From Deltaproteobacteria bacterium (GTDB taxonomy: Bacteria; Myxococcota; UBA727; VGSZ01): DNA of 64,000 bases. Positions within the stretch are counted from its first letter, which is position 1, and every line of letters starts with the position of its first letter. This document shows positions 6,514 to 56,073 of the stretch, one piece after another. Below the pieces are notes generated by a model, which did not search any database, was not told the origin of the DNA, and saw only the letters and a list, made by a program, of their open reading frames with translations. The position numbers were made by a program, and so were the translations under genes. The stretch is taken from NCBI GenBank assembly GCA_016177705.1, contig JACOUT010000002.1:213604-277603 (forward strand). The letters run 5' to 3'.

Positions 6514-6648
6514 CGTTCGCTCCGGTTCGATGCAAAACGTTCGTTTTTTTCGTGTCATGTCAATCGCCTCGCGCGCAAAGGCGCCGTCGGTGTGGCCGGG
6601 CTCACAGCGCCCTTGCCTGCGGTGGCGGGGCGCGCGCAATGTCGGCCC

Positions 6649-30694: not shown

Positions 30695-30767
30695 GGCAGC
30701 ATCACTGTAGCCGGTCGACGTCGCGACGGTCGATCAACGCCGCGCGCGCGGCATCGACGAGACACCG

Positions 30768-31412
30768 TCAGCGCGGCACCGGCAGGTAGCCGAGATCGTG
30801 CAGCCGCTCGTCGTCCGCGAGGCCCGCCGGCGTGACGATGCGCTGCTCGACCACCACCGCGAGGCACGCGCGCGCGTCCGCGAGGCCGCGGCATGCCGGG
30901 TGGCGCCGCCAACGCTTCGCGAACAGCGCGCGCACCGGCGGCGCCTGCACGTCGAGGTCGCCCACCTGCTGCGCCACGCCGAGCGGCAGCCCGGCGCGCC
31001 GCCACGCCTCGACCAACAGCTCGCTGCAGTACAGCTCGTCAGCGCCCTCGGCGAAGGCGCCGTCATACGGCGTGCCGACGAGCGCGAGCACCTCGCGCTG
31101 CACCCGCGCGCGCAGCTCGTCGTCGTCGAGGCGGGCGTCGCGCAGCACCGTGCTCGACGAGCGCCCGCGGCGCAGGAACTCCGCGAGCGGCGTCCGTCGC
31201 GCGCGCCCAGCCGCTTCGACCACCCAGACCGCGTCACCCTCGCGCACCACCACGCCGACGTGCGTGAAGCTCGAGCGCGTCGCCACCGCGACCGCCAGCG
31301 CCTGGGCAGAGGAGCTCGTGTGCAGCAGCAGGTCGCCGGTGCGCAGCTCATCGGCGTCGACGGTGGGGACGGCGGCGGCCGCGAGCAGCAGGGCGAAGGC
31401 AGGCAGGTGCAT
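30768..31412 (-). CDS. Secreted protein, possibly a permuted-papain/NlpC-P60-like (YiiX-like) hydrolase
   Basis: Signal MHLPAFALLLAAAAVP. GDLLLHTSSSAQALAVAVATRSSFTHVGVVV…VWVVEA pattern. Confidence 0.35.
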   Translation of the reverse strand: MHLPAFALLLAAAAVPTVDADELRTGDLLLHTSSSAQALAVAVATRSSFTHVGVVVREGDAVWVVEAAGRARRTPLAEFLRRGRSSSTVLRDARLDDDELRARVQREVLALVGTPYDGAFAEGADELYCSELLVEAWRRAGLPLGVAQQVGDLDVQAPPVRALFAKRWRRHPACRGLADARACLAVVVEQRIVTPAGLADDERLHDLGYLPVPR

Positions 31413-31481
31413 GGTTCAAGCGCAACCAGGCGCGCTGCGCGGCCATTTCCGCCGGCCGGGTACTCGCGCTACAGCGACGTG

Positions 31482-32306
31482 ATGCCGCACACCACGGACC
31501 CGCTCGACGAGCTCGATGCCTTCCTGCTCGAGCTGAACCGCGCCGCCGCCGACGTCATCCTGCCGGTGTTTCGCAACGCGGCGCAGCTCGCGATGGAGGA
31601 CAAGGGCAGCGTGGGCGCCTTCGACCCCGTCACGGCCGCCGACCGCGGCGCCGAGGCGGCCATCCGCAAGCGGGTGGCGGCGCGCTACCCGAGCCACGGC
31701 GTGCTCGGCGAGGAGTACGGCGCCGACCGCACCGACGCCGAGTGGGTCTGGGTCATCGATCCCATCGACGGCACGCGCGCCTTCGTCGCCGGTCTGCCGG
31801 TGTGGACCACGCTGATCGGCCTGCGCCACCAAGGGCGGCCGGTGCTCGGCTCCATCGGCCAGCCGGTGCTCGGCGAGGTCTTCATCGGCACCGCGGGTGG
31901 CGCGCGCTGCGTCACCGCTGGCGGCGAGCGCGCGCTACGCGTGCGCCCGTGCGCGCATCTGGCGGACGCGGTCGTCGCCACCACCGATCCCTTCAAGTTG
32001 CTCGACGAGCGCGAGCTGGCGGTCTGGCAGCGCGTGCAAGCGGTCGCGCGCTTCGCGCGCTACGGCTGCGACGCCTACGCGTACGCCATGGTCGCCGCCG
32101 GCTTCGTCGATCTGGTGGCCGAGAGCAGCCTCAAGCCCTGGGACATCGACGCCGCCGTACCGGTGTTGCAGGGCGCGGGCGGCCTGGTCACCGACTGGCG
32201 CGGCGGCGGCATCGGCACCAACGGCGGCCAGATGCTGATCGCGGGCGACCGCCGCGTGCTCGACGAGGCGCTCGTGCTCACGCGCGAGGTAGCGCGCTCG
32301 CCCTGA
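31482..32306 (+). CDS. Inositol monophosphatase family protein (histidinol-phosphatase HisN-like)
   Basis: WVIDPIDGT and WDIDAA motifs of the IMPase superfamily. Confidence 0.7.
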   Translation: MPHTTDPLDELDAFLLELNRAAADVILPVFRNAAQLAMEDKGSVGAFDPVTAADRGAEAAIRKRVAARYPSHGVLGEEYGADRTDAEWVWVIDPIDGTRAFVAGLPVWTTLIGLRHQGRPVLGSIGQPVLGEVFIGTAGGARCVTAGGERALRVRPCAHLADAVVATTDPFKLLDERELAVWQRVQAVARFARYGCDAYAYAMVAAGFVDLVAESSLKPWDIDAAVPVLQGAGGLVTDWRGGGIGTNGGQMLIAGDRRVLDEALVLTREVARSP

Positions 32307-32315
32307 CCCAAGGAG

Positions 32316-34742
32316 TCAGGCCTTGGCGCGGCGCGCCTCGAGCGCGGCGATGCGCGTCTTCACCTTCAGGAAGCTGTCGGGGTTGAGCGAGAGCGAGTCG
32401 ATGCCGGCCTCGACCAAAAGCTCGGCGAAGTCGGGGTGGTCGCTCGGGCCCTGACCGCAGATGCCGATGGGGCGCCCCACCTTGTGCACGCGCGCGATCA
32501 CGTCGCGAATCATGCGCGTCACCGCCGGGTTTCGCTCGTCGAACAGGTCGGCGAGCAGCTCCGAGTCGCGGTCGACGCCGAGGATGAGCTGCGTCAGGTC
32601 GTTGCTGCCGATGGAGAAGCCGTCGAAGCGCTCGGCGAATTCCTCCGCGAGGATGACGTTCGAGGGGATCTCGCACATGACGTAGACCTTGAGCCCGAAC
32701 TTGCCCCGCTCGAGGCCCGCCGCCTTCATCACCGCCAGCACCCGGTCGGCCTCGTCGGTGGTGCGGCAAAACGGGATCATCACGATCAGGTTGTCTGCGC
32801 CGATCTGCTCGCGCGCCCTGCGGATGGCGCGGCACTCGAGCAAGAAGCCGTCCTGGTAGCGCGGGCTCGAGTAGCGCGAGGCGCCGCGAAACCCGATCAT
32901 CGGGTTCTCCTCGTCGGGCTCGAAGGCGGCGCCGCCGATCAGGTTGCGGTACTCGTTGGTCTTGAAGTCACTCATGCGCACGATGACGGGCCTCGGGTAC
33001 TGCGACGCTGCGATGAGCGAGATGCCGCGCGCCAGGCGCTCGACGAAGTACTCGCCCTTGTCGGCGTAGCCGCGCGTAAGCTCGGCGATCAGCGCGCGGT
33101 CCTTGTCGCCGCTCACGCGCTCAGGGTGGGCCAGCGCCATCGGGTGCACGCGGATGTCGTCGGTGACGACGAACTCCATGCGCAAGAGGCCCACGCCGTC
33201 GGTGGGCAGGCGCCAGTACTTGAGCGCCGACGCGGGGTCCGCCAGGTTGATCATGATGCGCGTGGCCGTCTTCGGAACGGTGTCGAGCGCGGTCTCTTCG
33301 CGCGTGAACGGCAGCGCGCCGCGGTAGACGACGCCCTCGTCGCCGCCGGCACAGGAGAGCGTGACGGGCGCGCCGTCGGCGATGACGCGGGTGGCGTCGG
33401 GTGCGCCGACGACCGCGGGGATGCCGAGCGCGCGCGACACGATGGCCGCGTGGCAGGTGCGGCCGCCGTGCTCGGTGACGATGCCCGCCGCCACGCGCAT
33501 GGCCGGTACCCAGTCGGGGTCAGTGCTCTCGGCGATGAGGATCGAGCCGGGCCGGAAGCGCTCGAGGTCGGCGACGCTCCTGATGACGCAGGCGGGCGCC
33601 GCCGCGATGGCGGAGCCGACCGCGCGGCCTTTCACCAGCACCTCGCCCTGGCCGTCGAGCCGCCAATTGACCAGTCCCACCGCGCCGGCGCGCGACTGCA
33701 CGGTCTCGGGCCGCGCCTGCACGATGTACAGCTCGCCGGAGACGCCGTCCTTGGCCCACTCGATGTCCATCGGCATCGGCCGGCCGGCGCGCTCGCTCAT
33801 GTGCCGCTCGATCTGCACGGCGAAGCGGCCGATGGCGATGGCGTCGTCGTCGGACAGGCACAGGCGGCGGCGCTTCTCGAGCGGCGTGTCGACGTTGCGC
33901 GTGGTGGCGCTGCCGCCCTGCGCCAGCACCATGGTGCGCTCCTTGTCACCGACTCGCGCGCGCAGGATCGGGCGCTTCTTTGGGTCATCGAGCGCGCGTT
34001 TGAACAGCAGTACCTCGTCGGGCGAGACCGTGCCCTTGACCACGTTCTCGCCGAGGCCCCAGGAGCCGGTCACCATGACGACGTCGGGGAAGCCGGTCTC
34101 GGTGTCGAGCGTGAAGGCGACGCCCGCGCACGCGAGGTCGCTGCGCACCAGCTTCTGCACGCCCACCGACAGCGCCACCTTGTCGTGCGCGAAGCCGTGC
34201 TCGTCGCGGTAGGCGATGGCGCGGTCGGTGAACAGCGACGCCACGCACGCGCGCCAAGCGTTGACCACCTCGACGTCGCCGCGCACGTTCAAGAAGGTCT
34301 CCTGTTGGCCGGCGAAGCTCGCCTCGGGCAGGTCCTCCGCGGTGGCGCTCGAGCGCACCGCGACGCTCGCGTGCTCCTCGCCGCACTGGCGCGACAGCTT
34401 GCTGTACGCCTCGAGCAACGCGGCCTTGATCGCCGGCGGTATCTCGCCCGAGGCGACGCGTCGCCGGATGGCCGCGCCGGTCTGCTGCAGCGTGGCGCCG
34501 CCGGCGGCGAGTGCGGCGAGCGCCGCGGCGATCGGTGCCTCGAGCGCGTTGTGCGACAGGAAGGTGCGGTAGGCGGCGGCAGTGACGGCGAAGCCGGGCG
34601 GCACGCGCACGCCGGCGCCGGTGAGCGTGCGGGTCATCTCCGAGAGCGAGGCGTTCTTGCCGCCCACCGAGGCGACCTGGGTCGCGCGCTCGTCGTCGAA
34701 CCACAAGATCAACGGCTCGCTCGCCATGGCACCCTCCATCAC
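32316..34742 (-). CDS. ppsA: Phosphoenolpyruvate synthase (pyruvate, water dikinase)
   Basis: N-terminal ATP-grasp segment (GGKNASLSEM), phospho-His domain (GGRTCHAAIVSRALGIPAVVG) and PEP-utilising C-terminal domain. Confidence 0.85.
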   Translation of the reverse strand: MMEGAMASEPLILWFDDERATQVASVGGKNASLSEMTRTLTGAGVRVPPGFAVTAAAYRTFLSHNALEAPIAAALAALAAGGATLQQTGAAIRRRVASGEIPPAIKAALLEAYSKLSRQCGEEHASVAVRSSATAEDLPEASFAGQQETFLNVRGDVEVVNAWRACVASLFTDRAIAYRDEHGFAHDKVALSVGVQKLVRSDLACAGVAFTLDTETGFPDVVMVTGSWGLGENVVKGTVSPDEVLLFKRALDDPKKRPILRARVGDKERTMVLAQGGSATTRNVDTPLEKRRRLCLSDDDAIAIGRFAVQIERHMSERAGRPMPMDIEWAKDGVSGELYIVQARPETVQSRAGAVGLVNWRLDGQGEVLVKGRAVGSAIAAAPACVIRSVADLERFRPGSILIAESTDPDWVPAMRVAAGIVTEHGGRTCHAAIVSRALGIPAVVGAPDATRVIADGAPVTLSCAGGDEGVVYRGALPFTREETALDTVPKTATRIMINLADPASALKYWRLPTDGVGLLRMEFVVTDDIRVHPMALAHPERVSGDKDRALIAELTRGYADKGEYFVERLARGISLIAASQYPRPVIVRMSDFKTNEYRNLIGGAAFEPDEENPMIGFRGASRYSSPRYQDGFLLECRAIRRAREQIGADNLIVMIPFCRTTDEADRVLAVMKAAGLERGKFGLKVYVMCEIPSNVILAEEFAERFDGFSIGSNDLTQLILGVDRDSELLADLFDERNPAVTRMIRDVIARVHKVGRPIGICGQGPSDHPDFAELLVEAGIDSLSLNPDSFLKVKTRIAALEARRAKA

Positions 34743-34830
34743 ATCGTCGCCGAGGTATAGCGCACCGCCGCGCAGGTACCCCAGGTCGACGGGGCTTCCG
34801 GTCGCGCGCGGGGGACACTAGCGTGGCCCC

Positions 34831-35874: not shown

Positions 35875-37767
35875 TCAGCGGAAGCTCGAGCCGTGCTTGA
35901 GCTTGGGCGCGCGCCCCTCGAGAGCGAACATGAGCGCCGAGGCGTCGATGGTGTCGCCCAGGCTGACGGTGCCGCCCGTCCGATCGTGGATGCCGCGCGA
36001 GGGCACGAAGTGGATCACGGTGCCGTCGGCCGGGTTTTGCCACCACCAGCGCTCGACGACGAGCGCGCGCTCGCGATCGGAGAGCCCGAAGCGCGCCTGC
36101 AGCGCGTCGGCGAAGCGGTGCAGCGCCGCCAGGCCGGTGCCGCGCACCGAGGGCACCACCGGCCAGACGTCGTCGGCGCTCTTGATCTCGCCGGTGTCGT
36201 TGGCCGCCTTGTTGGCGGCGAGCTGGCGCGCCTTGACGAGCGCGAGCGTCTGGCGCTCCGGGTCCTTGGCGCCCGGCGTGCCCTTGGCCGAGACCACCAG
36301 GTCGCCCTCGAGCCCGTGCAGGTGGACGCGCGGCAACGACAGCCCGTCGGCGATCATGAGCGCGCCCTCGAGCATGTGCAGCGGGTCCTCCGCTGCCTCG
36401 CGCGGCACCTCCACGGGCACCTTGCCGGTCGAACGCTTGCCCTGGCAGAGGCCGCCGTCGACCAGCGCGTCGACGAAGGGCGCCACCTCGACGACGTTGA
36501 GCGCAAGCGAGTCGAGCGCGCCCTTGAGCGCGCCCCACACGACCGGCTCGTTCTCGAAGGCCTTCGGCACCACGTACTGCGCGTGGATCACGAGCGCGGG
36601 GTTCGCCTTCTTCATGGTGGCGAGCGCGGCGGCGAGCTTCTTTGCTTCCTCGGCGGCGGCCTGCTCGCTTGGCGCCTGTGTAAGGTAGTGGGCGCCGACG
36701 AAGAAGAACAGGTCGGTGTCCTTGGCGAGCTTCGTGAGCGTGGCGTCGTCGACCCCCTGCAGGCCGGGCCGCACGTCCTTGGCGAGCGCGCCCACGATGA
36801 CGCGGCTGTTGCCACCAGGCACGAGCGCGACGTCGGCGCCGTTGACGCGCACGCTAGTGCGCCCGCACAGCTCGAGCGCCAGACCGGCGCCGTACTCGAG
36901 GCTCAAGTTGACCCGCGCAGGCGTCTGGTCGGCGAAGGCGTCGGGCGCGTGGCGCGCGCCCGCCTTGTCGACGAGCGTGACCCCCGGCGCGAAGCGATCG
37001 GCGATCGCCTCTGGGATCTGCTCCGCCGAGAAGAAGCGCGCGTCGGCGCCGACCGCCGCGGCGAGGTTGGCGGCGAACGCGCCGGCGCCGCCCATGGCTT
37101 TCTTGGGGGAGAAGCCCGCGGCCGCGAGCGTTTCATCGAGCCAGCGCGACAGCTCGGGCGCGACCGCGAGCTGCTTGGAGGCGCCGTCGCCGAGCGCGAT
37201 CTGGCGGACCAGCGAGGCGATAAGCTCGACGGGGTTGCCTGGACGGGCCCAGACCGTGCCGCCGCCCGGCGGCCCCTGGTCGATGGCGACGAGCAGCGCG
37301 GCTTCGTCGCCGCAGCCGCTGACCAGCGCCCCGAGTGAGGCCGAGGTGAGCGGCACCTTGGCGTCCACCACGCGCGTGAAGCCGAACAGATCGGTCTGCG
37401 GTGAGGCCTTGAGGTGCTCGGCGCGCTTGGAGCGTGCGACCGCGCGCTCCATGTCGGCCGCGGTCACTCTCGTGTCCGTCGTCTGTCCCTGTACCAGCTC
37501 GGCGGCCTGGATGGCGCCGGCGACATCGCCGGTGACCGGTACGCCGAGCTCGACCGCGTGCAGCAAAAGCTCGCGCGCCGCCGCTGTTCCCCCTTGCGGC
37601 GGCGCGTCGAGCCCGGTCGACCCCCCGACCACGTCGACGACGACGGGCTTCACCTCCGTCGTCACCGACGCGACCCCGTTGTGCGCCGACGGGACGACCT
37701 TGGCATCGCTGCCAAGGCCGACCCGCTGCTCGACGTGGATCGGGGGGCTTCGCCGACCGAGTTTCAC
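35875..37767 (-). CDS. ADP-dependent sugar kinase family protein (ADP-glucokinase/phosphofructokinase type, ribokinase-like fold) with an N-terminal extension
   Basis: MGGAGAFAANLAAAVG (compare the GGNAGIMANVLA family motif) and C-terminal TVSLGDTIDASALMFAL (compare the GLGDTISAGAF catalytic motif). The true start is uncertain. Confidence 0.45.
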   Translation of the reverse strand: MKLGRRSPPIHVEQRVGLGSDAKVVPSAHNGVASVTTEVKPVVVDVVGGSTGLDAPPQGGTAAARELLLHAVELGVPVTGDVAGAIQAAELVQGQTTDTRVTAADMERAVARSKRAEHLKASPQTDLFGFTRVVDAKVPLTSASLGALVSGCGDEAALLVAIDQGPPGGGTVWARPGNPVELIASLVRQIALGDGASKQLAVAPELSRWLDETLAAAGFSPKKAMGGAGAFAANLAAAVGADARFFSAEQIPEAIADRFAPGVTLVDKAGARHAPDAFADQTPARVNLSLEYGAGLALELCGRTSVRVNGADVALVPGGNSRVIVGALAKDVRPGLQGVDDATLTKLAKDTDLFFFVGAHYLTQAPSEQAAAEEAKKLAAALATMKKANPALVIHAQYVVPKAFENEPVVWGALKGALDSLALNVVEVAPFVDALVDGGLCQGKRSTGKVPVEVPREAAEDPLHMLEGALMIADGLSLPRVHLHGLEGDLVVSAKGTPGAKDPERQTLALVKARQLAANKAANDTGEIKSADDVWPVVPSVRGTGLAALHRFADALQARFGLSDRERALVVERWWWQNPADGTVIHFVPSRGIHDRTGGTVSLGDTIDASALMFALEGRAPKLKHGSSFR

Positions 37768-37784
37768 CCCTTGACGCTAGCAGC

Positions 37785-39794: not shown

Positions 39795-41072
39795 TCAGTG
39801 CTTCTGGTCGCGCCACGCCTTGGCGAGGCCCTCGCGATCGTCGGGGTGCGCGAGCGCGATCAACGCGGCCGCGCGCTCGTGCAGCGTGCGTCCGAACAGG
39901 TTGGCGGCGCCGTGCTCGGTGACCAGCCAATGCAGGTGGGCGCGCGTCGTCACCACGCCGGCGCCGTCCTGCAGGCGCGGCACGATGCGCGCACGCCCGG
40001 TGCGCGTGCGGCTCGGCAGCGCGAGGATCGGCTTGCCGCCCTCCGACATGGCGGCGCCGCGCAGGAAGTCCATCTGCCCACCCACGCCCGAGATGACCCG
40101 CGTGCCGATGGAGTCGGCGCACACCTGGCCGGTCAGGTCGATCTCGACCGCCGAGTTGATGGCCACCACCCTCGGGTTCCTCGCGATCACGTTCGGCCGG
40201 TTGACGTAGCCGCAGTCGAGCAACACCACCGCCTGGTTGTCATCGACGTAGTCGTAGAGCGCGCGCGAACCGAACAAGAACGACGACACCGTCTTGCCCG
40301 GGTGGATCGCCTTCTTGGTGTTGTCGACCACGCCGCGGTCGATCAGCGGCAGCAGACCGTCGGAGAACATCTCGGTGTGCACGCCGAGGTGGCGATGGCC
40401 GCCGAGCGCCGCCAGTACCGCGTCAGGGATGGCGCCGATGCCCATTTGCAGCGTGCTGCCGTCCTCGATGAGCGCGGCGACGTGCCTGCCGATGGCGCGC
40501 TCGACGTCGTCGAGTTGGTGCGGCTCGGGCTCGGGCAGCGCCGCATCCACCTCCAGGAAGCGCGCGATGCGGCGCTGATCGATGAAGCCGTCGCCGTGGG
40601 TGCGCGGCATGCGGGGATTCACCTCGGCCACCACCACCTTGGCGACATCGACGGCGGCCTTGGCGGTGTCGACCGAGGTGCCGAGCGAGCAGAAGCCGTG
40701 CGCGTCGGGCGGCGACACCTGCACGAACGCGACGTCGACCGGACGCACGCCCGAGCGGAACAGGAACGGCATCTCGGAGAGGAAGCACGGCAGATAGTCG
40801 ACGCGCGCGCCGTCGAGCCTGCCGCGCAGGTTCTCACCGACGAACAGGCTGGCGACGCGGAAGCTCTTGGCGTAGCGCGCATCGGCGTAGGCCGCCGGGC
40901 CTGCGGTGTGCAGGTGAATCAGCTCGACGTCCAGCAACGAGTCGGCGCGCGAGTCGGCGCGCGCCACCAGCGCCTCGAGCAGACGAAGCGGCGTCGCCGC
41001 CGCGCCATGCACGAACACGCGCTGGCCGCTTCGCACCAGCGCGACCGCTTCTGCCGCATCCTTGACCTTCAT
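39795..41072 (-). CDS. Acetyl-CoA hydrolase/transferase family protein (succinyl-CoA:acetate or 4-hydroxybutyrate CoA-transferase-like)
   Basis: LQMGIGAIPDAVLAAL… and …EIDLTGQVCADSIGTRVISGVGGQMDFLRGA family signatures. Confidence 0.7.
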   Translation of the reverse strand: MKVKDAAEAVALVRSGQRVFVHGAAATPLRLLEALVARADSRADSLLDVELIHLHTAGPAAYADARYAKSFRVASLFVGENLRGRLDGARVDYLPCFLSEMPFLFRSGVRPVDVAFVQVSPPDAHGFCSLGTSVDTAKAAVDVAKVVVAEVNPRMPRTHGDGFIDQRRIARFLEVDAALPEPEPHQLDDVERAIGRHVAALIEDGSTLQMGIGAIPDAVLAALGGHRHLGVHTEMFSDGLLPLIDRGVVDNTKKAIHPGKTVSSFLFGSRALYDYVDDNQAVVLLDCGYVNRPNVIARNPRVVAINSAVEIDLTGQVCADSIGTRVISGVGGQMDFLRGAAMSEGGKPILALPSRTRTGRARIVPRLQDGAGVVTTRAHLHWLVTEHGAANLFGRTLHERAAALIALAHPDDREGLAKAWRDQKH

Positions 41073-41081
41073 GCGGCCACG

Positions 41082-41519
41082 CTACGCCGTCTGGCGCACG
41101 ATGGTCACCGGGACGGTCGCTTCCTTGGCCACCTTCTCGGCGACGCTGCCGAGCACCAGGTGCTCGAGCCCCTTGCGCCCGTGGGTGCCCACCACCACGT
41201 GGTTGACGCCGAGCCGCGCCGCCTCGTCGATGATGCCACGCGCCGGGTCGCGTGCAGGCACCACGTCGACTTCGATGGCGACCTTCGGGTAGCGCTCACG
41301 CAGCGCGCTGGCCACGCCTTGTAGGCGCATGCGCAGCTCCTCTTGCAGGCGGTTGGTCTCCTCGCCCCACGCCTCCTCGGGCCGCAACTGCGGCAGCGGG
41401 TGCACGTGGAGCAGCACCACCTTGCCGCCCAGCTTCTCGACGACGCGCGCGCCCTCCTTTGCAGCGGCGTCGCCGCAAGGGGAGAAGTCGTGCGCCACCA
41501 GCCAGGTCTCGGTTGCCAT
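41082..41519 (-). CDS. Universal stress protein (UspA family)
   Basis: …VGVNHVVVGTHGRKGLEHLVLGSVAEKV… ATP-binding motif. Confidence 0.7.
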   Translation of the reverse strand: MATETWLVAHDFSPCGDAAAKEGARVVEKLGGKVVLLHVHPLPQLRPEEAWGEETNRLQEELRMRLQGVASALRERYPKVAIEVDVVPARDPARGIIDEAARLGVNHVVVGTHGRKGLEHLVLGSVAEKVAKEATVPVTIVRQTA

Positions 41520-41734
41520 CGCTGCCTCCAGGGGTCGGTAGTCTCACGACCTCGCTCCGGCCAAGCGCAAGATCAATGCCTGGATGCCGGCTCGCGATGC
41601 CGTGGCGCGATATCGCCCCCGGGCAGGGCCGCGCGGGCTTCTCGCAGCACCCCCGTGTGCAAAACGGCCCAGCTCCCTTGTCGACTGCGGGTGAAGAAAC
41701 ACGATCGGGCGGCCGTCCCACGCTAGCGTTGGCC

Positions 41735-42535
41735 ATGCGCGTCGCTGCCTGTTTGCTCGTCGCCGTCGGCATGGCCCTCGCTGCCGGTCCCGCGGCCGCC
41801 ACGTCGTCGCCGGGCACGAGCGCGGCGGCGGTCGGCGCCGGTGAATCCGAGGCCACCGTGGCCGCCGCCAAGAAGAAGGCGCCGCCCAAGAAGAAGCGCC
41901 GGACGCCACCGCCGGATCGCAGGAAGGCGCCACCGGTGCCGCGGGTGGATCCGCTTATGGTATCGGCCGCTGCTGCCGGCGGCGCGGCCGGCGGCGCGTG
42001 CATCGGCGCGGCCACGGTCACCACCGCCGCCATCATCGGACTCGGCGTGTTCGCGGCGCCGACGGTGCCGGTAATGATCGCCGCCGCCGTCATCGGCATC
42101 GGCGTCGCGGTCGCCACTCCGTTCATGGCTGCGCTCGGCGGCGGCGCCGCGGTCCTGCTCGCCGACCCGAGGAGCAAACCCGACGAGTGGTCGTCGCTGC
42201 TGCAGTGCGCGGCCTCCGGCTACTGCATGGGCCTGTCCCTCATCGGTGGCACGCTGCTCGGCGCCACCGGCTGCGGGGGGCTGCCGGGGTGCGGCATGGG
42301 GCAGACCCCCGACAAGATTCCCGGCCCGGACAAGGCGGCGGAGTGGACCGCGGGCTCGGCCATCGCCGGCCTGATCGGTGGCACCGTCGTCGGCGGCCTG
42401 CTCGGCTGGGCCGTGTCCCCCGACCCGAATGCGCCCTTCGTCCCCATCGCCATCGGCGCAGGCGCGGGCGGTGTGCTCGGCGCGGGCGCCCTCGCCGGCG
42501 CGGGCGCCGCCATCGCCACCGCCGTCCGGCGCTAA
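41735..42535 (+). CDS. Gly/Ala-rich membrane or secreted protein with a Lys-rich segment
   Basis: Signal MRVAACLLVAVGMALAAGPAAA. KKKAPPKKKRRTPPPDRRKAPP. Repeated G/A-rich hydrophobic segments resembling glycine zippers. Confidence 0.45.
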   Translation: MRVAACLLVAVGMALAAGPAAATSSPGTSAAAVGAGESEATVAAAKKKAPPKKKRRTPPPDRRKAPPVPRVDPLMVSAAAAGGAAGGACIGAATVTTAAIIGLGVFAAPTVPVMIAAAVIGIGVAVATPFMAALGGGAAVLLADPRSKPDEWSSLLQCAASGYCMGLSLIGGTLLGATGCGGLPGCGMGQTPDKIPGPDKAAEWTAGSAIAGLIGGTVVGGLLGWAVSPDPNAPFVPIAIGAGAGGVLGAGALAGAGAAIATAVRR

Positions 42536-42539
42536 CGAG

Positions 42540-44147
42540 TCACAAGCAGACCATCGAGACCGGGCAGCAGTAGGGCTCGCCCTCGCCCTCGGCGGGTAAC
42601 CCGCCCCCCCGAACGCAGGTGCCGCCGTTGCAGTCGAAGTCGTTGATGCAGCCGACGCAGGTACCGGTGGACTCGTCGCACACGCCCGAGCTGCAGTTGG
42701 CGTCGCTCAGGCACTGCACGCACGCCCCGCCGGGAGCGCACAGCAAGCCGAATTGCGCGCACGGGTTGACCCAGTCGGGCGAGCAGGAGAGGTCGTTGCC
42801 GCAGAGGTGCTGGCCGTTGCAAGGGTCGTTGTCGTCGGCGCAGACGGTGCCGGGGTTGCATGCGCAGGCGTCCTGTCCCTCCTGGCACACCGGCTGATAG
42901 GGGTCGCTGCACGGGTTTGTGCCTGCGCTGCACGCGTCGCCGGCGCAGCTCTCGGCGCCGTTACAGAACAGGCCGTCATCGCAGTCGCTGTTGGTGAAGC
43001 AGGCGACGCAGCGGTCGTCCGACTCGCGGCACAGGCCGGCGCACGGCGACGTGCCGGGCTGGCAGTTGGCGCCGCCGTCGCAAGTCTCGTCGCCGTTGCA
43101 GAAGAGCCCGTCGCTGCACTCGACGTCGTTGGTGCAGCCGGTGCAGCTCTGCGTGCCCTCTTGGCAGTTGGCGGCGCCGCACGGGTTGACGCCTGGCGTG
43201 CAATCGCCGGCGACACAGGTCTCGACGCCGTCACAGAAGACGCCGTTGCCGCAGTCGTCGTCACCGGCGCACTGCGCACAGCGGTCGTCGGCCTCGAGGC
43301 AGAGCGGCCGCGCACCGGCGCACGGTTCGCTGCCCGGCTGGCAGGTATTGGCGCTGCAGGTCTCGATGCCGTTGCAGTACAGGCGGTCGTCGCAGTCGCC
43401 GTCTGACTGACAGGCGACACAGGTGTTGGTGTCCTCGACGCAGATGTTGCCAGCCACGCATGGTTGGCCACCGGGGATGCACAGGCTCGACTGGCATGAC
43501 GCCACACCGTTGCAGTACAGGCCGTCGTCGCAGTGCAGGTCGCTGCTGCACTGTTGGCAGGTGTCGGCGACCTCATTGCAGATCGGGGTCACGCCGAAAC
43601 AGACGGCGCCAAGCGTGATGCACGCGCCCGTGTCGCAGCGCTCCTCGCCCGTGCAATAGAGCGCGTCGTCGCACTCGGCGTCGTCCGTGCAGGTGCCGCA
43701 TTGGTCGGCTGCCTCCAGGCAGTTGCTGTCACACGGCGCCGTGCCGGGGCCGCAGGTGGCGCTCGCCGCGTCGCACAGCTCGGCGCCGTTGCAGAACTGC
43801 TCGTCGTCGCAGTCGCCGTCGTCGAGGCAGTCGACACAGTGGCCGGCTTGCTCATCGCAACCCATGGCGTCGGGACACGGGTCGGCGCCGCCCTGACAGG
43901 TGCCCTGCACGCAGCGCTCGACACCGTTGCAGAACGCGCCATCGTCGCAGGGCTCGTCGCTGGTGCAGCGGTTGTCGCCCTCGCCCTCGCCTTCGCCGAG
44001 CTGCGCCGCCAGCACACACATGGCGCCGTTGCACGCGTAGCCCTGGTCGCACTCGGTGGTGGCGGTGCAGGGACGGCCGTAGCCGACGTCCGCCGGCAGG
44101 TCGCAGGTTGCGAGCGCGAGCACGCCGCCGAGGAGCATCGCCCTCAT
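42540..44147 (-). CDS. Secreted Cys-rich repeat protein (about 13 repeats of C-x-xD-x-D/E-C-D-D-G-x-F/Y-C-N-G-x-E-x-C…PC)
   Basis: Signal MRAMLLGGVLALATC. GGAGG ribosome-binding site. Roughly 38-aa tandem repeats. Its start overlaps the upstream gene's stop (ATGA). Confidence 0.6.
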   Translation of the reverse strand: MRAMLLGGVLALATCDLPADVGYGRPCTATTECDQGYACNGAMCVLAAQLGEGEGEGDNRCTSDEPCDDGAFCNGVERCVQGTCQGGADPCPDAMGCDEQAGHCVDCLDDGDCDDEQFCNGAELCDAASATCGPGTAPCDSNCLEAADQCGTCTDDAECDDALYCTGEERCDTGACITLGAVCFGVTPICNEVADTCQQCSSDLHCDDGLYCNGVASCQSSLCIPGGQPCVAGNICVEDTNTCVACQSDGDCDDRLYCNGIETCSANTCQPGSEPCAGARPLCLEADDRCAQCAGDDDCGNGVFCDGVETCVAGDCTPGVNPCGAANCQEGTQSCTGCTNDVECSDGLFCNGDETCDGGANCQPGTSPCAGLCRESDDRCVACFTNSDCDDGLFCNGAESCAGDACSAGTNPCSDPYQPVCQEGQDACACNPGTVCADDNDPCNGQHLCGNDLSCSPDWVNPCAQFGLLCAPGGACVQCLSDANCSSGVCDESTGTCVGCINDFDCNGGTCVRGGGLPAEGEGEPYCCPVSMVCL

Positions 44148-44902
44148 TCCGCACCTCCCGAGGTCAAGCCCCAGACCGCGCCGCCCGCCGCGGCGACAAC
44201 GCCGACCGCCGCGAACGCCAAACCGGCCGCGAGCGACGCCTGCCCCCAACCGACCCAATCAGCCCGTGCCTGCTGCTGCGCCGCGTACAGCCCGTCGACC
44301 CCGTCGGTGGCGCCTTGCTTCTCGGCCGCGGCGAGCGCGTCGCGTGCGGCGCCGTGCGCGAACCACGGCTGCGCGCCGACGACGGCGAGCGCCGCGCCGG
44401 CCAGCACGGCCGCGCCGCCAACGCCGGCCGTCACCCAGGGCCACGGCGTCGAGGGCGGGGGCGCCGCCGGCTCGTCGCGCGACGGCGGCGCTGGCGTCGG
44501 CGCGGCTGGAGCGGGGGCCGAGGCGGCAGCGGTCGGCACGGCGCTCGGAGGCGCCGGCAGCGGGCAGGGCGTGCCGGGGCCGCCCTTCTCGACCAGCTTG
44601 GTGAGCGCCGCGATGCGCCCCTTGGCCTCGGTCTTGCGGGCGGCGCTGGTCGTGGTGCCGAGCAGCTGCGTGTACAGCTGCATGGCGCGCGCGCGATCGG
44701 CGCCGAGCTCGGCGGCCTGTGCGGCGTTGAAGACCAGGTCGGGCGTGGGCGCCAGTCGATCGGCGTCGAGGAAGAGCGCGAGCGCGTCGCACCAGCGTTT
44801 CTCACCGACGGCCGCGAAGGCGGCCTCCTCGCTGGCGCGCGCGCGCACGGCCGCGTCGTCGTCGGCGGTAGCGACCAGCAAGAGCGCCGCCGCGACGATC
44901 AC
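44144..44902 (-). CDS. TPR-like membrane-anchored protein, co-transcribed with the Ser/Thr kinase
   Basis: GTG start overlapping the kinase stop (GTGA). Helical N-domain. Pro/Ala-rich linker. C-terminal TM helix (WPWVTAGVGGAAVLAGAALAVVG). Confidence 0.45.
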   Translation of the reverse strand: MIVAAALLLVATADDDAAVRARASEEAAFAAVGEKRWCDALALFLDADRLAPTPDLVFNAAQAAELGADRARAMQLYTQLLGTTTSAARKTEAKGRIAALTKLVEKGGPGTPCPLPAPPSAVPTAAASAPAPAAPTPAPPSRDEPAAPPPSTPWPWVTAGVGGAAVLAGAALAVVGAQPWFAHGAARDALAAAEKQGATDGVDGLYAAQQQARADWVGWGQASLAAGLAFAAVGVVAAAGGAVWGLTSGGAE

Positions 44903-46371
44903 CCGCCCTCCTTGGTGCGCACGCGCACGAAGCCGGAGGGCTCGGTCGGCGGCTCGGCCTCCGTGGGCTTCGGGGCCGGCTTGACCTTGGGCTTCGGCTT
45001 CACCTTGGTGGCGGTCTTGCTCGGCGTGGCCGGCGCGGGCGGCGCCTCGACGGGCGGCGCCTCGACGACGGCTGCCGCGGGCACCAGCGGCTGCTCGATG
45101 GCCGAAGCGGGCGACGACGGCTCGGTCGTCGCGGCCGCGGTCCTCGGGGCCGCGGTCGTCGGTGCCAGCGTCGCGGTCGCCGGCAGCACGGCGGTCGGCA
45201 CCGCGACCACGGGCGGCGTCTCGCGGCCGACCAGCAGGAGGCCGACGCCGATGCCGACCGCCGCCACCACCATCAGCCCGGCGGCGACAGGAAGCCAGCG
45301 TGAGGTCGGCCGGCGCCGCTCGAGCGCCGTCGGACCAGACGTGTTGACGGCACCGGCGATCCGGGTGGGCGCGCCGGCCAAGGTCGAGGAGCTCGGCTCG
45401 CTCTTTGGCTGCGCCAGCTCGGTCGGCCCGTCGTGGCTCGCCAACATCTCGACCTTGAAGCCGGTCGGCAGCGTCTCCTCGACGCTGCGCCGACGTGGGC
45501 CGCTCACCGAGGTTTCGTCGCCCATGGCGCTCGCGAGCGCGGCCTCGAGCGCGCGCATCGAGGCGAAGCGCTTGGCCGGGTCCTTCTCCAGGCACTTGAG
45601 CACGGCCGCTTCGAGCGCGTCGGGGATGTCGACCTTGCCGACGGCGCGCTCGGCGATACGCGGCGCCGGCGTCGAGACCTGGTGCCGCACCAGGTCGGAG
45701 AGCGACTCGACGTCGAACATGGGCGCGCCGGCCAGCATGCGAAACAGGATGACGCCGAGCGAGTAGACGTCGGTGCGGCCATCGACGGCCTGGCCGTTCA
45801 CCTGCTCGGGCGCCATGAACGGTAGGGTGCCGAGCAGGGCCCCTTGCTGGGTGAGCCCGCCGGTGGCGTCGTTGGTCATCTTGGCGACGCCGAAGTCGAG
45901 CACCTTGGCGATGTCCTCCTCGCCGTCGATGGTGCACAGCATGACGTTGGCCGGCTTGAGGTCGCGGTGCACGATGCCAAGGTCGTGCGCCGCCTGCATG
46001 CCCTTGGCGATGTGGCGCGCGATGCGCACGGCGCGGGTCGGCGGCACCTTGCCGTGGAGCAAGAGCTTGTCGAGCGGCTGGCCGTCGAGCAGCTCCATGA
46101 CGATGTACAGCTCGCCGGTCTCGGTCTTGCCGTACTGGATCACCTGCGCGACGTGGCGGCTTTGGATGCGCGCCGCAGCCTTGGCCTCGAGCGTGAAGCG
46201 CGCGGTCTGCTCGGCGACGACGGCGTCATCGCCCGCCGGCACCATCATCTTGATGGCCACCTGGCGATCGAGCGTGGTGTCGACGGCGCGGTACACGACC
46301 CCCATGCCGCCGCGCCCAAGGCGCTCCTGTACCAGATAGGGGCCAATGCGCCGGCCCTGCCACTCGGACAT
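44899..46371 (-). CDS. Hanks-type Ser/Thr protein kinase with TM helix and Pro/Ala/Lys-rich extracellular tail
   Basis: [11 protein letters not shown] (P-loop), AIKMM (VAIK), HRDLKPANV (catalytic loop), DFG, APE. Confidence 0.8.
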
Positions 46372-46488
46372 GCCCGGCAGGTTACCAAGAAGGTCGCGCC
46401 GCGCCGCGTCGCGGCGACACCGCGCCCGCGACGCGAGACACTTCCGAAAAGCCGGCGAATGCGCCAGACGCTCTCCCCGGAGGCTCAC

Positions 46489-48348
<1,860 letters not shown>

Positions 48349-48393
48349 GCGCGCGCACGTCGGGACGATGGGCGGGGCGTGGTAGCTTGAGCT

Positions 48394-49377
48394 ATGAGCA
48401 CCATCGCCCCCCAGAAGCTCAACAGCCTCGCCACGCTGCGCGCGAAGGATCCGGCGGCGTTCGACGCGAGCGTCGCCACGATCGCCAAGGGCGGCAGCGC
48501 CGGCAACCTCGAGGCAGCGGCGCTCGCCAAGAGGGCCGGCGTCGGCGTGCTCGACGTCCTCGAGCTCGCGACCGCCGGTATCGAGCTGCTCGCCAAGCAC
48601 AGCGGCGTGCAGACGATGCTGAAGGAGGGCAGCACCTTGGGAAGCGCGCCCACGTTTGGCGGCGTCGGTGCGGGCGGCACGCTCAAGCTGAAGGGCTTCG
48701 TCGGGCGCGAGGTCGAGCGCGTGCAGCACGAGGCGCGCAACGTGCTCGACGCGTTGCGCGAGTTCGCCCCGCTCACCAACGCCTCCTTGATCGACAAGCC
48801 CGGCGCCGACCTCGGCTCGAAGGTCGGCCACTTCATGCAGCGGGTGGGCGCGTTCTTCGCCGATACCGGCAACGCCATGCTGCGCGAGTCACCGGTGAAC
48901 GCCGACCACCTGACGGCGGACGAGGCGACGCGACTGCTCGGCATGATCAAGGGCGCGGACGCGGTGGTGCTCGCGGCGCTTCGGCCACGTTTCGAGGCGC
49001 ACCTCGCACGCCTGGCGCCGGAGCGGATCGACGGCGGTGCCAAGGAGCCGCTCGCCGAGATTCGCAAGCTGCTCGAGGGGGTGCCGCCCGAGGCGCGCGA
49101 GGCCGCAGCGCTGCTCTCCTCGATCGCCAGGGCCGGCTACGACTTCGAGTCCAACCCAGGGCCGAGCCGAGCCGCGCAGGCCGCCGTCTTGAAGCTCGAG
49201 GTGCCCCTGCCCTTGCAGAAGGAGGCGATCGAGGTGCTCGAGCAGAGCTTCAAGGGGCAAATCGAACAGCGACGCACGGCCGATGCCCAGTGGGCAAACG
49301 ACTACTTCAACCCGCTCAACCCGATGAGCCCCTACAGCGCTGCCAACCCTGCCAACTGGGGCAAGCCAGGCGAGTAG
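48394..49377 (+). CDS. Hypothetical cytoplasmic protein
   Basis: ORF with coding-like composition and GC3 bias. No recognisable motif. Confidence 0.45.
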   Translation: MSTIAPQKLNSLATLRAKDPAAFDASVATIAKGGSAGNLEAAALAKRAGVGVLDVLELATAGIELLAKHSGVQTMLKEGSTLGSAPTFGGVGAGGTLKLKGFVGREVERVQHEARNVLDALREFAPLTNASLIDKPGADLGSKVGHFMQRVGAFFADTGNAMLRESPVNADHLTADEATRLLGMIKGADAVVLAALRPRFEAHLARLAPERIDGGAKEPLAEIRKLLEGVPPEAREAAALLSSIARAGYDFESNPGPSRAAQAAVLKLEVPLPLQKEAIEVLEQSFKGQIEQRRTADAQWANDYFNPLNPMSPYSAANPANWGKPGE

Positions 49378-51170: not shown

Positions 51171-51415
51171 ACGCCCGGGCGGTACTCGCCGAGCCAAAAG
51201 GCCGGGCCGCGCGCTAGAAGCTCACGATGGTCAGGCGTGCGCAGCGGGACACCCACAAGCAGATCCGCCACAAGACGAGCGGGCAGCTCGACGTCGGCCG
51301 CACCAGCGGCGTTCAAGGCAAGCGCGAGCAGCCCAAAGGCGAGGTCAAGCACGCGCTCGCGAGCGACGCCTATCTGACCGCGCAAGGGAAGGCCGAGCTG
51401 CCCTCGAACGCAACC

Positions 51416-52681
51416 ATGGGCCGAGGCGGACCCTCGTCGATCGTCGCGGTGCGGCAGCGCGAGGTCGCGCGCGTCACCGGGCGCAAGGCGCTCGTGCTCA
51501 ATTCCGGCTCGAGCTCCATCAAGTTCCAGGTGCGCCAGGAGGGGGGCAAGACGCTCATCAGCGGCAAGGTGGAGCGCATCGGCGAGGACGAGAGCAAGCT
51601 CACGCTCAAGGTGGGCGGCACGAGCTTCGAGATCGCGCGGCCCATCAAGAACCACGAGGAGGGGCTGCGCCTGCTCGTCGAGGCGCTGACCGACCCCAGC
51701 CGCGGCGCCATGAAGCTCGAGGACATCTCGGCCGTGGGCCACCGGGTGGTGCACGGCGGCCCGCGCTTCAAGGAGCCGGTGCGCATCGACGCCGACGTCG
51801 AGCAGGCGATCGCCGACTACGCCAAGCTCGCACCGCTGCACAACCCGCCCGCGCTCGCGGGCATCAGCGCCGTCCACAAGGTGCTCGGCGACCTGCCGCA
51901 GATCGCGGTGTTCGACACCGCGTTCCACGCCACCTTGCCCGAGGAGGCGTCGTCGTACGCCCTACCCAAGGAGTGGCGGGAAGAAGGCGTACGCCGCTAC
52001 GGCTTTCACGGCATCTCGGTGGAGAACGCCACCGCGCGCGCGGCCAAGATGCTCGGGCGCCCGCTGGAGGCCACCAACCTCATCGTCTGCCACCTCGGCA
52101 ACGGCGCCTCCATCACCGCGGTCGAGCACGGCAAGTCACGCGACACTTCCATGGGCATGACGCCGCTCGCGGGCATCACCATGGGCACGCGGCCGGGCGA
52201 CGTCGACGTGGGCGTTATCTTCCACCTGCTCAAGCAGGGCCACACCATCGAGCAGATCGAGAAGGATCTGAACAACCGCTCGGGCCTGCTCGGCCTGTCG
52301 GATGGACTATCGAACGACGTGCGCGAGTTGCTCGCCGCCGAGGCCACGGGCGACCCGCACGCCAAGCTCGCGCTCGAGAAGTACACCGAGGACATCACCG
52401 AGCAGATTGGCGCCTTCTTGGCCAAGCTGCGCGGCGACGTGCACGCCATCGTCTTCACCGGCGGCGTAGGCGAGAACTCGGGCGTGCTGCGCGAGCGTAT
52501 CGTCTCGCACCTGAACGCCTTCGGCTTCTCGCTCGACAAGAAGAAGAACGGCGGCGAGGGCTCGCTCGGCGTCGACGAAGCCAACATCTCGCCTGGCCGC
52601 GCCGCCAAGAAGGTGCTGGTGATCCGCGCCGACGAAGAGGGCGCCATCGGCGAGGCTGCCTTCAAGCTCACGCGCGAGTGA
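51416..52681 (+). CDS. ackA: Acetate kinase
   Basis: ALVLNSGSSSIKFQV N-terminus. Later FHGISVE and VFTGGVGENS. Alternative GTG start at 51449. Confidence 0.8.
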   Translation: MGRGGPSSIVAVRQREVARVTGRKALVLNSGSSSIKFQVRQEGGKTLISGKVERIGEDESKLTLKVGGTSFEIARPIKNHEEGLRLLVEALTDPSRGAMKLEDISAVGHRVVHGGPRFKEPVRIDADVEQAIADYAKLAPLHNPPALAGISAVHKVLGDLPQIAVFDTAFHATLPEEASSYALPKEWREEGVRRYGFHGISVENATARAAKMLGRPLEATNLIVCHLGNGASITAVEHGKSRDTSMGMTPLAGITMGTRPGDVDVGVIFHLLKQGHTIEQIEKDLNNRSGLLGLSDGLSNDVRELLAAEATGDPHAKLALEKYTEDITEQIGAFLAKLRGDVHAIVFTGGVGENSGVLRERIVSHLNAFGFSLDKKKNGGEGSLGVDEANISPGRAAKKVLVIRADEEGAIGEAAFKLTRE

Positions 52682-54351: not shown

Positions 54352-56007
<1,656 letters not shown>

Positions 56008-56073
56008 GGGCGCTCCTGATCCGGGGTTTGACCGGGATCCCCTTCGTACCTACCTTGCCCGGAGGAGGTTTGC

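Follow-up and report, generated by a model that had tools for sequence, protein, structure and literature searches.

How could a membrane-bound Ser/Thr kinase that carries no folded sensor domain be informed of conditions outside the cytoplasm? This question is raised by three adjoining genes at positions 42,540 to 46,371 of a 64,000-nucleotide stretch of contig JACOUT010000002.1 (assembly GCA_016177705.1, an uncultured Myxococcota metagenome-assembled genome (MAG)), the whole of which is called the window below. They encode a Hanks-type Ser/Thr kinase, a tetratricopeptide repeat (TPR)-like membrane protein referred to here as gene 2, and a Cys-rich repeat lipoprotein. A first-pass annotation of the same DNA had placed the three genes in one operon and had taken the kinase and the Cys-rich protein as the signalling partners. 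The operon was supported by our analysis and the partnership was not: judged from the loci compared, the conserved core is the kinase with gene 2, to which one clade has the Cys-rich lipoprotein as an accessory third gene.

Since the window has a G+C content of about 70%, long spurious open reading frames (ORFs) are frequent in it, and the real frames were picked by codon-position G+C. Three minus-strand ORFs had a coding-type G+C at the third codon position (GC3) of 0.90-0.94. These genes and the signals at their junctions, read from the DNA, are:

44899..46371, minus strand: Hanks-type Ser/Thr kinase gene, 490 aa, GC3 0.94, with a Pkinase match (NCBI MBI1944273.1)
44144..44902, minus strand: gene 2, TPR-like membrane protein, 252 aa (NCBI MBI1944272.1, HYS27_01180)
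42540..44147, minus strand: Cys-rich repeat lipoprotein gene, 535 aa, with 87 Cys, 61 Asp, 29 Glu, 11 Arg and 0 Lys
44899..44902, minus strand: GTGA, in which the GTG start of gene 2 shares 4 bp with the kinase stop
44144..44147, minus strand: ATGA, in which the ATG of the Cys-rich gene shares 4 bp with the gene 2 stop
44907..44913, minus strand: AAGGAGG ribosome-binding site of gene 2, within the last kinase codons (K-E-G) and 4 nt before the GTG
44154..44158, minus strand: GGAGG ribosome-binding site of the Cys-rich gene
46372..46488, no strand: divergent intergenic region of 117 bp between the kinase and PEPCK genes, presumed promoter region

The three minus-strand ORFs, the GTGA at 44902-44899, the ATGA at 44147-44144 and the GGAGG site, all claimed in the first-pass annotation, were confirmed from the sequence. 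The start codons chosen agree with the N-termini of orthologs (MSEWQG..., MRAMLL...), and those of the kinase and gene 2 also match the NCBI records, in which the MAG is labelled 'Deltaproteobacteria bacterium'; the exact kinase protein already carries a Ser/Thr kinase annotation. No ATG, GTG or TTG occurs in frame in the 13 codons before the gene 2 GTG at 44902, and the further ~50 codons upstream hold no Met, Val or Leu residue, so this stretch offers no earlier start that would add a basic n-region to gene 2. Downstream, the unit is bounded by a convergent plus-strand gene (41741-42535), whose stop lies 4 bp from that of the Cys-rich gene; upstream, it is bounded by a divergent PEPCK_GTP gene, which begins at 46489. 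A scan of 42300-46700 gave no sigma-70-type promoter or terminator consensus, hence none inside the unit, and an Rfam scan of 40000-49000 returned no family. Both 4-bp overlaps are present again in the related loci L001, L002, L004 and L005. Because of the 4-bp overlaps at both junctions, the Shine-Dalgarno sequence before each downstream gene, the convergent gene after the unit and the divergent gene before it, the three genes are read as one compact, translationally coupled operon, lying on a single strand with each stop and start overlapping and each ribosome-binding site inside the upstream gene, and kept in relatives. The presumed promoter region also contains GC-rich inverted repeats (46392-46435), including a perfect 10-nt inverted repeat, CGCGTCGCGG / CCGCGACGCG, at 46405-46414 / 46426-46435 with an 11-nt spacer; the repeat at 46405-46435 could be an operator or could have arisen by chance in GC-rich DNA.

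Loci of relatives compared with the window are labelled L001-L059. In the close relatives (L001, L002/L008, L004, L009, L057 and L058) the triad is identical, with both 4-bp overlaps, and gene 2 is 65-76% identical. The distant locus L005 also keeps the triad and both overlaps, at an identity of 57% in the kinase domain, ~40% in gene 2 and ~42% in the Cys-rich protein; its flanks differ from those of the window, and a PP2C phosphatase gene lies nearby. Orthologs of the Cys-rich gene were thus found in L001, L002, L004, L005, L009, L057 and L058. In L007 and L056 the kinase tail and gene 2 are kept, convergent unrelated genes follow, and the Cys-rich gene is absent. A scan of GTDB gave 48 loci, nearly all from Myxococcota MAGs, and with the close relatives L008 and L009 set aside 46 distant loci (474 kb) remained. 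The Cys-rich repeat gene was present at none of these 46 gene-2-like loci. A kinase gene ends 1-37 bp upstream of the gene-2-like gene on the same strand in six of the 46, at a seventh distant locus the kinase lies 760 bp upstream, and L006 and L059, which came from other sources, are two further cases of a kinase with a gene-2-like gene. Since the same 474 kb contain ~10 non-adjacent kinase domains, well under one chance adjacency would be expected by a rough estimate. A metagenome scan with a near-clade profile of gene 2 gave at least three loci, among them two close triads and one distant pair. The three-gene arrangement proposed earlier was therefore recovered in the close relatives and in L005, and its third gene was missing from L007, L056 and the 46 distant loci. 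Since these loci lack the Cys-rich gene while kinase adjacency recurs, kinase and gene 2 are the core pair and the lipoprotein is the addition.

The kinase has the following parts:

45544..46335, minus strand: catalytic domain, aa 13-276, complete in its catalytic motifs
45226..45297, minus strand: single transmembrane helix, aa 359-382, the sole Kyte-Doolittle peak of the protein (2.54)
44902..45216, minus strand: extracytoplasmic tail, aa 386-490, Pro/Ala/Thr-rich (24 Pro, 22 Ala and 14 Thr in 105 residues)

The earlier description of the first product as a eukaryote-like Ser/Thr kinase was borne out: Pkinase (PF00069) matches aa 13-276 at 153.2 bits (cutoff 31.7; E=1.2e-44), and the glycine-rich loop (19-26), VAIK (38-41), HRDLKPAN (135-142), DFG (159-161) and APE (187-189) are all present. 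Since these catalytic motifs are intact, the kinase is expected to be active. Its nearest solved structures are PknE (E=1.6e-44), PknB and StkP, and close relatives share 85-92% identity with it over the catalytic domain. Outside the catalytic domain, no Pfam domain and no folded sensor domain were found. The protein is not a PASTA kinase, since the PknB_PASTA_kin model NF033483 scored only 262.5 bits (cutoff 450) and Pfam gave no PASTA match. The tail diverges fast among relatives, and its last 10 aa are kept in L001, L002, L004, L005 and L007. Variants of this C-terminal motif are FVRV[RH]TKEGG, FIRVRT..., GFVRVHTKEDQG and AFKRVLTR, the last two being the very ends of the tail, directly before the stop, in the L007 and L056 lineages. 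The FVRVRT tail was also considered as a remnant of a PEGA domain, and this idea was dropped because only one of eight kinases paired with gene-2-like proteins (L055) gave a Pfam PEGA match.

Gene 2 was divided, with the help of an AlphaFold2 (AF2) model, into three parts:

44573..44845, minus strand: TPR-like five-helix domain, aa 20-110 (AF2 pLDDT 96-98)
44444..44572, minus strand: Pro-rich disordered linker, aa 111-153 (AF2 pLDDT 64-68, without secondary structure; length varies in the alignment)
44162..44443, minus strand: pair of hydrophobic helices joined by a conserved 45-aa hairpin, aa 154-247 (Kyte-Doolittle, AF2)

Only 17 close homologs of gene 2 were found among 5.8 billion clusters, all from uncultured samples. 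A single-sequence search matched P0018, a small protein positive for Pfam TPR (PF13432), at E=2.9e-9, and profile searches starting from gene 2 led into a continuum of ~250-aa proteins from Kofleriaceae, Polyangia and Nannocystis with the source label 'tetratricopeptide repeat protein'. When the near clade of gene 2 was compared by hhalign with 15 TPR-positive Myxococcota proteins, the alignment (99.8% probability, E=6.9e-28, 229 columns) spanned the entire architecture, from the signal peptide through the TPR part and the Pro-rich linker to the two hydrophobic helices. The profile of the broad family matches consensus TPR structures. In the AF2 model, helices of the N-terminal part cover residues 2-33, 37-50, 54-66, 70-83 and 87-107, and a Foldseek search with aa 20-110 of this predicted model gave small peptide-binding TPR domains as all top matches (target TM-score 0.6-0.73, with a best E of only 0.045), among them Hop, SGT, Tah1, the prolyl-4-hydroxylase peptide-binding domain, YbgF and BamD. 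The earlier description of gene 2 as a TPR-like membrane protein is thus supported by hhalign, AF2, Foldseek and the TPR-positive relatives, and these comparisons support its placement as a diverged member of a Myxococcota TPR protein family.

Residues N59, Q62, E65, D69, R89 and K94 and the pair Cys38/Cys113 are invariant in the alignment, the Cys pair being limited to the near clade. The invariant Asn on helix A2 with the Arg/Lys on the last helix is an arrangement that we take to resemble a carboxylate clamp. The hydrophobic helices were located by Kyte-Doolittle peaks at 156-182 and 220-247 and by AF2 helices at 155-196 and 202-251, and the loop between them carries the conserved motif QPWFAH...ARADWVGWGQ. 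The canonical signal peptides of gene 2 relatives and the Cys38/Cys113 pair of the near clade both argue that the TPR part would be periplasmic. In four distant gene-2-like proteins (L006, L013, L038 and L042) the loop joining the hydrophobic helices contains a Cys pair, the second helix is followed by an Arg-rich segment, and the C-terminal residue is Phe (...TAGFAF, ...TLGMAF, ...WTIRF and ...LLESRF).

The third gene encodes a protein that was resolved into five parts:

44103..44147, minus strand: lipoprotein signal peptide with lipobox (MRAMLLGGVLALAT-C15), by inspection
43974..44102, minus strand: N-terminal small Cys knot (aa 16-46), then an acidic (Gly-Glu)n spacer of variable length
42864..43967, minus strand: eight canonical units, each 45-47 aa long and containing 8 Cys (aa 61-428; mean pairwise identity 44%)
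42714..42863, minus strand: degenerate ninth repeat, aa 429-478
42543..42713, minus strand: two short Cys units similar to those of the TraA stalk (aa 479-512), then a GEGE...CC tail, by sub-threshold TIGR04201 match

The lipobox reads LALAT-C15 in the window and LTG-C, ALS-C, LCA-C or AAA-C in the orthologs, and in every ortholog the lipobox Cys is followed by (D/T)LP(A/P)D (DLPAD/TLPPD). By inspection of this conserved lipobox the protein is assigned as a lipid-anchored lipoprotein, in place of the secreted protein of the first-pass annotation. The pattern GYGRPC...C..GY.C of the N-terminal knot is common to the window protein and that of L005. The canonical repeat follows C-x5-C-DDG-x-[FY]-C-N-G-x-E-x-C ... 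C-x-E-x-x-D-x-C-x2, and AF2 predicts two beta-hairpins and a short helix for each unit (pLDDT 85-96). The number of CDDGxFCNGxExC repeats, given earlier as about 13, came down to eight canonical and one degenerate, with two short units of another type. These two units bear a sub-threshold resemblance to TraA, an outer-membrane-exchange and cell-cell recognition receptor whose Cys-rich repeats have been proposed to form a rigid stalk, on which TIGR04201 was defined (PMC3325183). TIGR04201 (Myxo_Cys_RPT) scored 15.0 bits with the whole protein and 19.4 with the isolated C-terminus and did not reach its cutoff of 25; in the orthologs of L001, L002 and L004 it scored 14-19 bits at the same position, and the match is limited to aa 479-512. 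A local 40-residue match to the TraA model NF033759 was also obtained (E=1e-5, 24 bits against a cutoff of 750). Pfam and NCBIfam scans gave no PA14 and no MYXO-CTERM match.

The earlier assignment of the repeat to the Dictyostelium-type family was not upheld, since neither the whole protein nor single units or any of six sub-segments matched Dicty_CTDC (PF00526), TIGR02232 or DUF4215 (PF13948) at E<=10. The same scan detected PF00526 in the relatives P0026 (nine stretches) and P0046, and nine of 120 listed relatives carry a precomputed PF00526 match. In the consensus of the relatives the second half of the unit contains CTxDxCDE, which is missing from the window protein; this segment is similar to the Dicty repeat and is the probable reason for the PF00526 matches in some relatives. 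The CDDGLFCNGxExC unit occurs in >800 proteins, the majority of which come from Planctomycetota and other uncultured bacteria; fusion partners there are PKD domains, peptidases, cohesin, nucleases and other domains. For a solved structure of the repeat, phmmer against PDB gave nothing meaningful and Foldseek of the AF2 model gave a best E of 1.0.

Lysine is nearly absent from the lipoprotein (0-2 Lys in the orthologs of L001, L002, L004 and L005, which range over 490-697 aa, against 2.5% in other window proteins), and its net charge is about -79; the orthologs are all extremely acidic too. At the DNA level, the only tandem repeats in the window gene are short Gly-Glu hexamer arrays, one of which was placed at 43975-43997 by TRF, so the protein repeats are old. 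The Cys-rich gene of L005 contains a recent DNA tandem array at 6285-7066 (150 bp x 5.2 copies, 79% matches), and the window gene has none, so the repeat number is evolutionarily labile. The exact 535-aa protein is missing from a collection of 15 billion proteins, and a homology search with it returned neither itself nor its close orthologs; in public annotations the gene may carry another start or stay uncalled.

What the three proteins do together can be proposed only in outline. Our preferred reading, which we hold with about even confidence, is that the operon encodes an envelope-associated signalling unit in which a sensor-less kinase would receive input through a TPR adaptor, with the lipoprotein as an accessory input. 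The gene structure, the coupling signals, the domain identities and the pattern of a core pair with an accessory third gene are shown by the data above; topology, physical contacts, direction of signalling and substrates are the parts that we infer. The kinase would be anchored by its one transmembrane helix and would expose outside only a disordered Pro-rich tail ending in the FVRVRT peptide. The gene 2 product would be exported via its signal peptide and held in the membrane by its helical hairpin, and this adaptor would supply the extracytoplasmic input that the kinase lacks. Its TPR domain would bind peptide, for which the first candidate is the C-terminal motif of the kinase and the second the acidic Gly-Glu spacers of the lipoprotein, and binding of the tail, the lipoprotein or both could set the clustering and activity of the kinase. 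The acidic lipoprotein, with about nine presumably disulfide-locked modules, would act as an accessory probe of the envelope or cell surface. We do not take it for an output, since it is made together with the kinase, its place is outside the cytoplasm and some lineages do without it.

Several points weigh against this proposal. No direct evidence was found for any protein-protein contact, and over ~15 kb the window contains neither an FHA nor a PP2C partner gene. The neighbourhood of the close relatives is syntenic throughout, so their triad says little on function, and the Cys-rich gene is dispensable in two lineages (L007 and L056) and may be functionally unrelated. As for the adaptor, gene 2 has no direct Pfam or NCBIfam match even at E<=10, and its near-clade profile alone found no TPR chain in PDB by sequence; its TPR identity was therefore established via intermediate relatives and rests on remote evidence. 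The signal peptide of the near clade lacks a basic n-region, and the loop Cys pair and Arg-rich segment of the distant relatives fit poorly with a topology of one signal peptide and two transmembrane helices. Finally, the KEGG part of the kinase C-terminus coincides with the ribosome-binding site of gene 2, so it may owe its conservation to the nucleotide sequence, which leaves F-V/I-R-V-x-T as the only clearly conserved protein motif.

The main rival, which we regard as possible and clearly the less probable of the two, keeps kinase and gene 2 as a functional pair and makes the lipoprotein an unrelated structural protein of the surface or envelope (a stalk, a spacer or a Ca2+-binding coat) that is merely co-transcribed in this clade. 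The absence of the Cys-rich gene from L007, L056 and all 46 distant loci fits this explanation, as do the promiscuity of the repeat, an extracellular module with many domain fusions in >800 proteins of Planctomycetota and other phyla, and the lability of its number, seen in the ortholog lengths of 490-697 aa and the 150-bp x 5.2 array of L005. It is less easily reconciled with L005 itself, where triad and both overlaps have been kept at ~40-57% identity despite changed flanks, and where the ortholog-specific N-terminal knot and lipobox are conserved.

A further alternative concerns the genes around the operon, which is surrounded in the window (30711-56049) by a dense cluster for the phosphoenolpyruvate (PEP)/pyruvate node and glycolysis/gluconeogenesis:

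30711-32306: IMPase/FBPase-like gene
32316-34817: PEP synthase/PPDK-type gene
35875-37776: ADP_PFK_GK-like gene
39795-41072: acetyl-CoA hydrolase gene
46489-48348, plus strand: PEPCK_GTP gene, divergent from the kinase
51218-52681: acetate kinase gene
54352-56049: iPGM gene

It has been reported that Pkn4 of Myxococcus xanthus activates phosphofructokinase (PMC6213207). With this precedent, the kinase might mainly control the surrounding PEP/pyruvate-node enzymes, with genes 2 and 3 only tethering or tuning it, an explanation that is compatible on the input side with the signalling unit preferred here and that we consider unlikely. In its favour, the kinase is divergent from PEPCK_GTP across only 117 bp; the six other genes listed above lie within +/-15 kb; L001 and L002 likewise have PEPCK as an adjacent gene; and in the Kofleriaceae locus L006 a PEPCK_ATP gene is situated 1.8 kb upstream of the pair of kinase and gene-2-like gene. 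However, no PEPCK was found within 2.6 kb upstream in L005, adjacency carries little weight where close relatives share the neighbourhood as a block, and no substrate evidence was found.

Equally unlikely is an extended form of the signalling unit, a trans-envelope relay with a logic like that of Rcs, in which the lipoprotein, as a rigid, disulfide-locked and highly acidic rod of about nine modules, would probe the envelope or cell surface for spacing, Ca2+/metal or redox state and pass this on to the TPR-hairpin adaptor holding FVRVRT, upon which the kinase would adjust the surrounding PEP/pyruvate-node enzymes; the pair would then be a general and as yet undescribed two-protein sensor design in Myxococcota. 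Least probable of all is the proposal of the first-pass annotation that the kinase controls the secretion or deployment of an extracellular Cys-rich matrix or adhesion protein and thereby affects myxobacterial cell-cell behaviour: co-transcription and the Cys-rich stalk of TraA (PMC3325183), which the C-terminal units match weakly together with TIGR04201, speak for it, but an operon member is co-expressed with its kinase and not regulated downstream of it, an exported protein is out of reach of the cytoplasmic kinase domain, the product is lipid-anchored and has no adhesin-type domain, no MYXO-CTERM tag and neither PA14 nor any other recognition domain, its gene is missing from lineages that keep kinase and gene 2, and nothing was found to show an output role or a role in adhesion or cell-cell behaviour.

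Other genes near the operon were also inspected. The cluster at 30711-56049 further contains genes for Usp, HSP20, TetR and a PAS-GAF histidine kinase. The convergent plus-strand gene at 41741-42535 encodes 264 aa with no Pfam match, in which the N-terminus is signal-like and a basic stretch rich in Lys and Pro as well as long hydrophobic segments rich in Gly and Ala are present. It was considered as a fourth operon member and rejected: it adjoins the unit in L001, L002, L004 and L007 (directly after gene 2 in the last), is absent from L005 and L056, and is regarded as a neighbour. Directly downstream of PEPCK, a 327-aa ORF on the plus strand (48394-49377) has a GC3 of 0.92 and no Pfam match; a gene of similar size, with no Pfam match on record, lies at 318-1316 of L001, a few genes from PEPCK.

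Hanks-type kinases number in the hundreds in Myxococcota. Many of them are without a recognisable sensor domain, and to our knowledge the input signal is known for very few. If the pairing of kinase and TPR-hairpin protein is recurrent, it would be a testable model for how sensor-less kinases receive extracytoplasmic signals, to which one clade adds a lipoprotein. In the literature searched, we found no description of this recurrent pairing or of its Cys-repeat lipoprotein extension, and nothing specific on the repeat motif or on kinase/TPR/lipoprotein modules except the TraA papers. Membrane Hanks kinases with accessory envelope proteins are already known, so the pair with its lipoprotein is a modestly new variation. 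The Cys-rich unit is a very common bacterial extracellular module for which no Pfam family matches the window protein and no solved structure has the same fold, and a defined genetic context could help in assigning its role. As the organism is an uncultured MAG, all functional statements made here are inferred, and the locus is a useful lead rather than a surprise.

Each of the three proteins can be set beside known systems. The kinase is like the other membrane Hanks kinases PknB and PknE of Mycobacterium tuberculosis, StkP of Streptococcus pneumoniae and Pkn6 and Pkn8 of M. xanthus in its N-terminal catalytic domain with all motifs, its juxtamembrane linker, one transmembrane helix and extracytoplasmic C-terminus. 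It differs from them in that PASTA, beta-propeller, PEGA or any other folded sensor is replaced by a Pro-rich tail of only 105 aa. Gene 2 shares with the Myxococcota 'TPR repeat protein' family (P0207 of Nannocystis exedens and proteins of Kofleriaceae/Polyangia MAGs) the signal peptide, two TPR motifs with a capping helix, the Pro-rich linker and two hydrophobic helices, and often the position directly downstream of a kinase. The near clade differs in that it no longer has a Pfam TPR match, has gained Cys38/Cys113, has lost the Arg-rich Phe-terminated extension and has no loop Cys pair. Its predicted fold also resembles peptide-binding TPR domains of three helix pairs, namely Hop TPR1/2A, SGT, Tah1 and the collagen prolyl-4-hydroxylase peptide-binding domain (root-mean-square deviation ~2 A over ~90 residues, identity 14-21%, with weak Foldseek E >=0.045), although these are cytosolic eukaryotic proteins.

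The repeat of the lipoprotein has the first half of its unit in common with the >800 proteins of the widespread bacterial CDDGLFCNGxExC repeat (Planctomycetota, Myxococcota and others), some of which match the Dictyostelium repeat PF00526, and it differs from the consensus of these relatives in lacking the CTxDxCDE motif of the second half and in having no PF00526 match at E<=10. Like TraA of M. xanthus, the lipoprotein is a myxobacterial envelope protein with tandem disulfide-rich repeats; it differs from TraA in having neither PA14 nor MYXO-CTERM, an anchor formed by an N-terminal lipid, and a main repeat that is a different 46-aa, 8-Cys unit. As a whole, the triad may be compared with Rcs, an enterobacterial envelope-stress relay made up of the lipoprotein RcsF, the membrane adaptor IgaA and the kinase RcsC/D. 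The components are unrelated, Rcs being a His-kinase phosphorelay without TPR and without Cys repeats, and the likeness is an analogy that bears only on how the unit might work, with a lipoprotein that probes, an adaptor that sits in the membrane and has a periplasmic domain, and a kinase that is likewise in the membrane.

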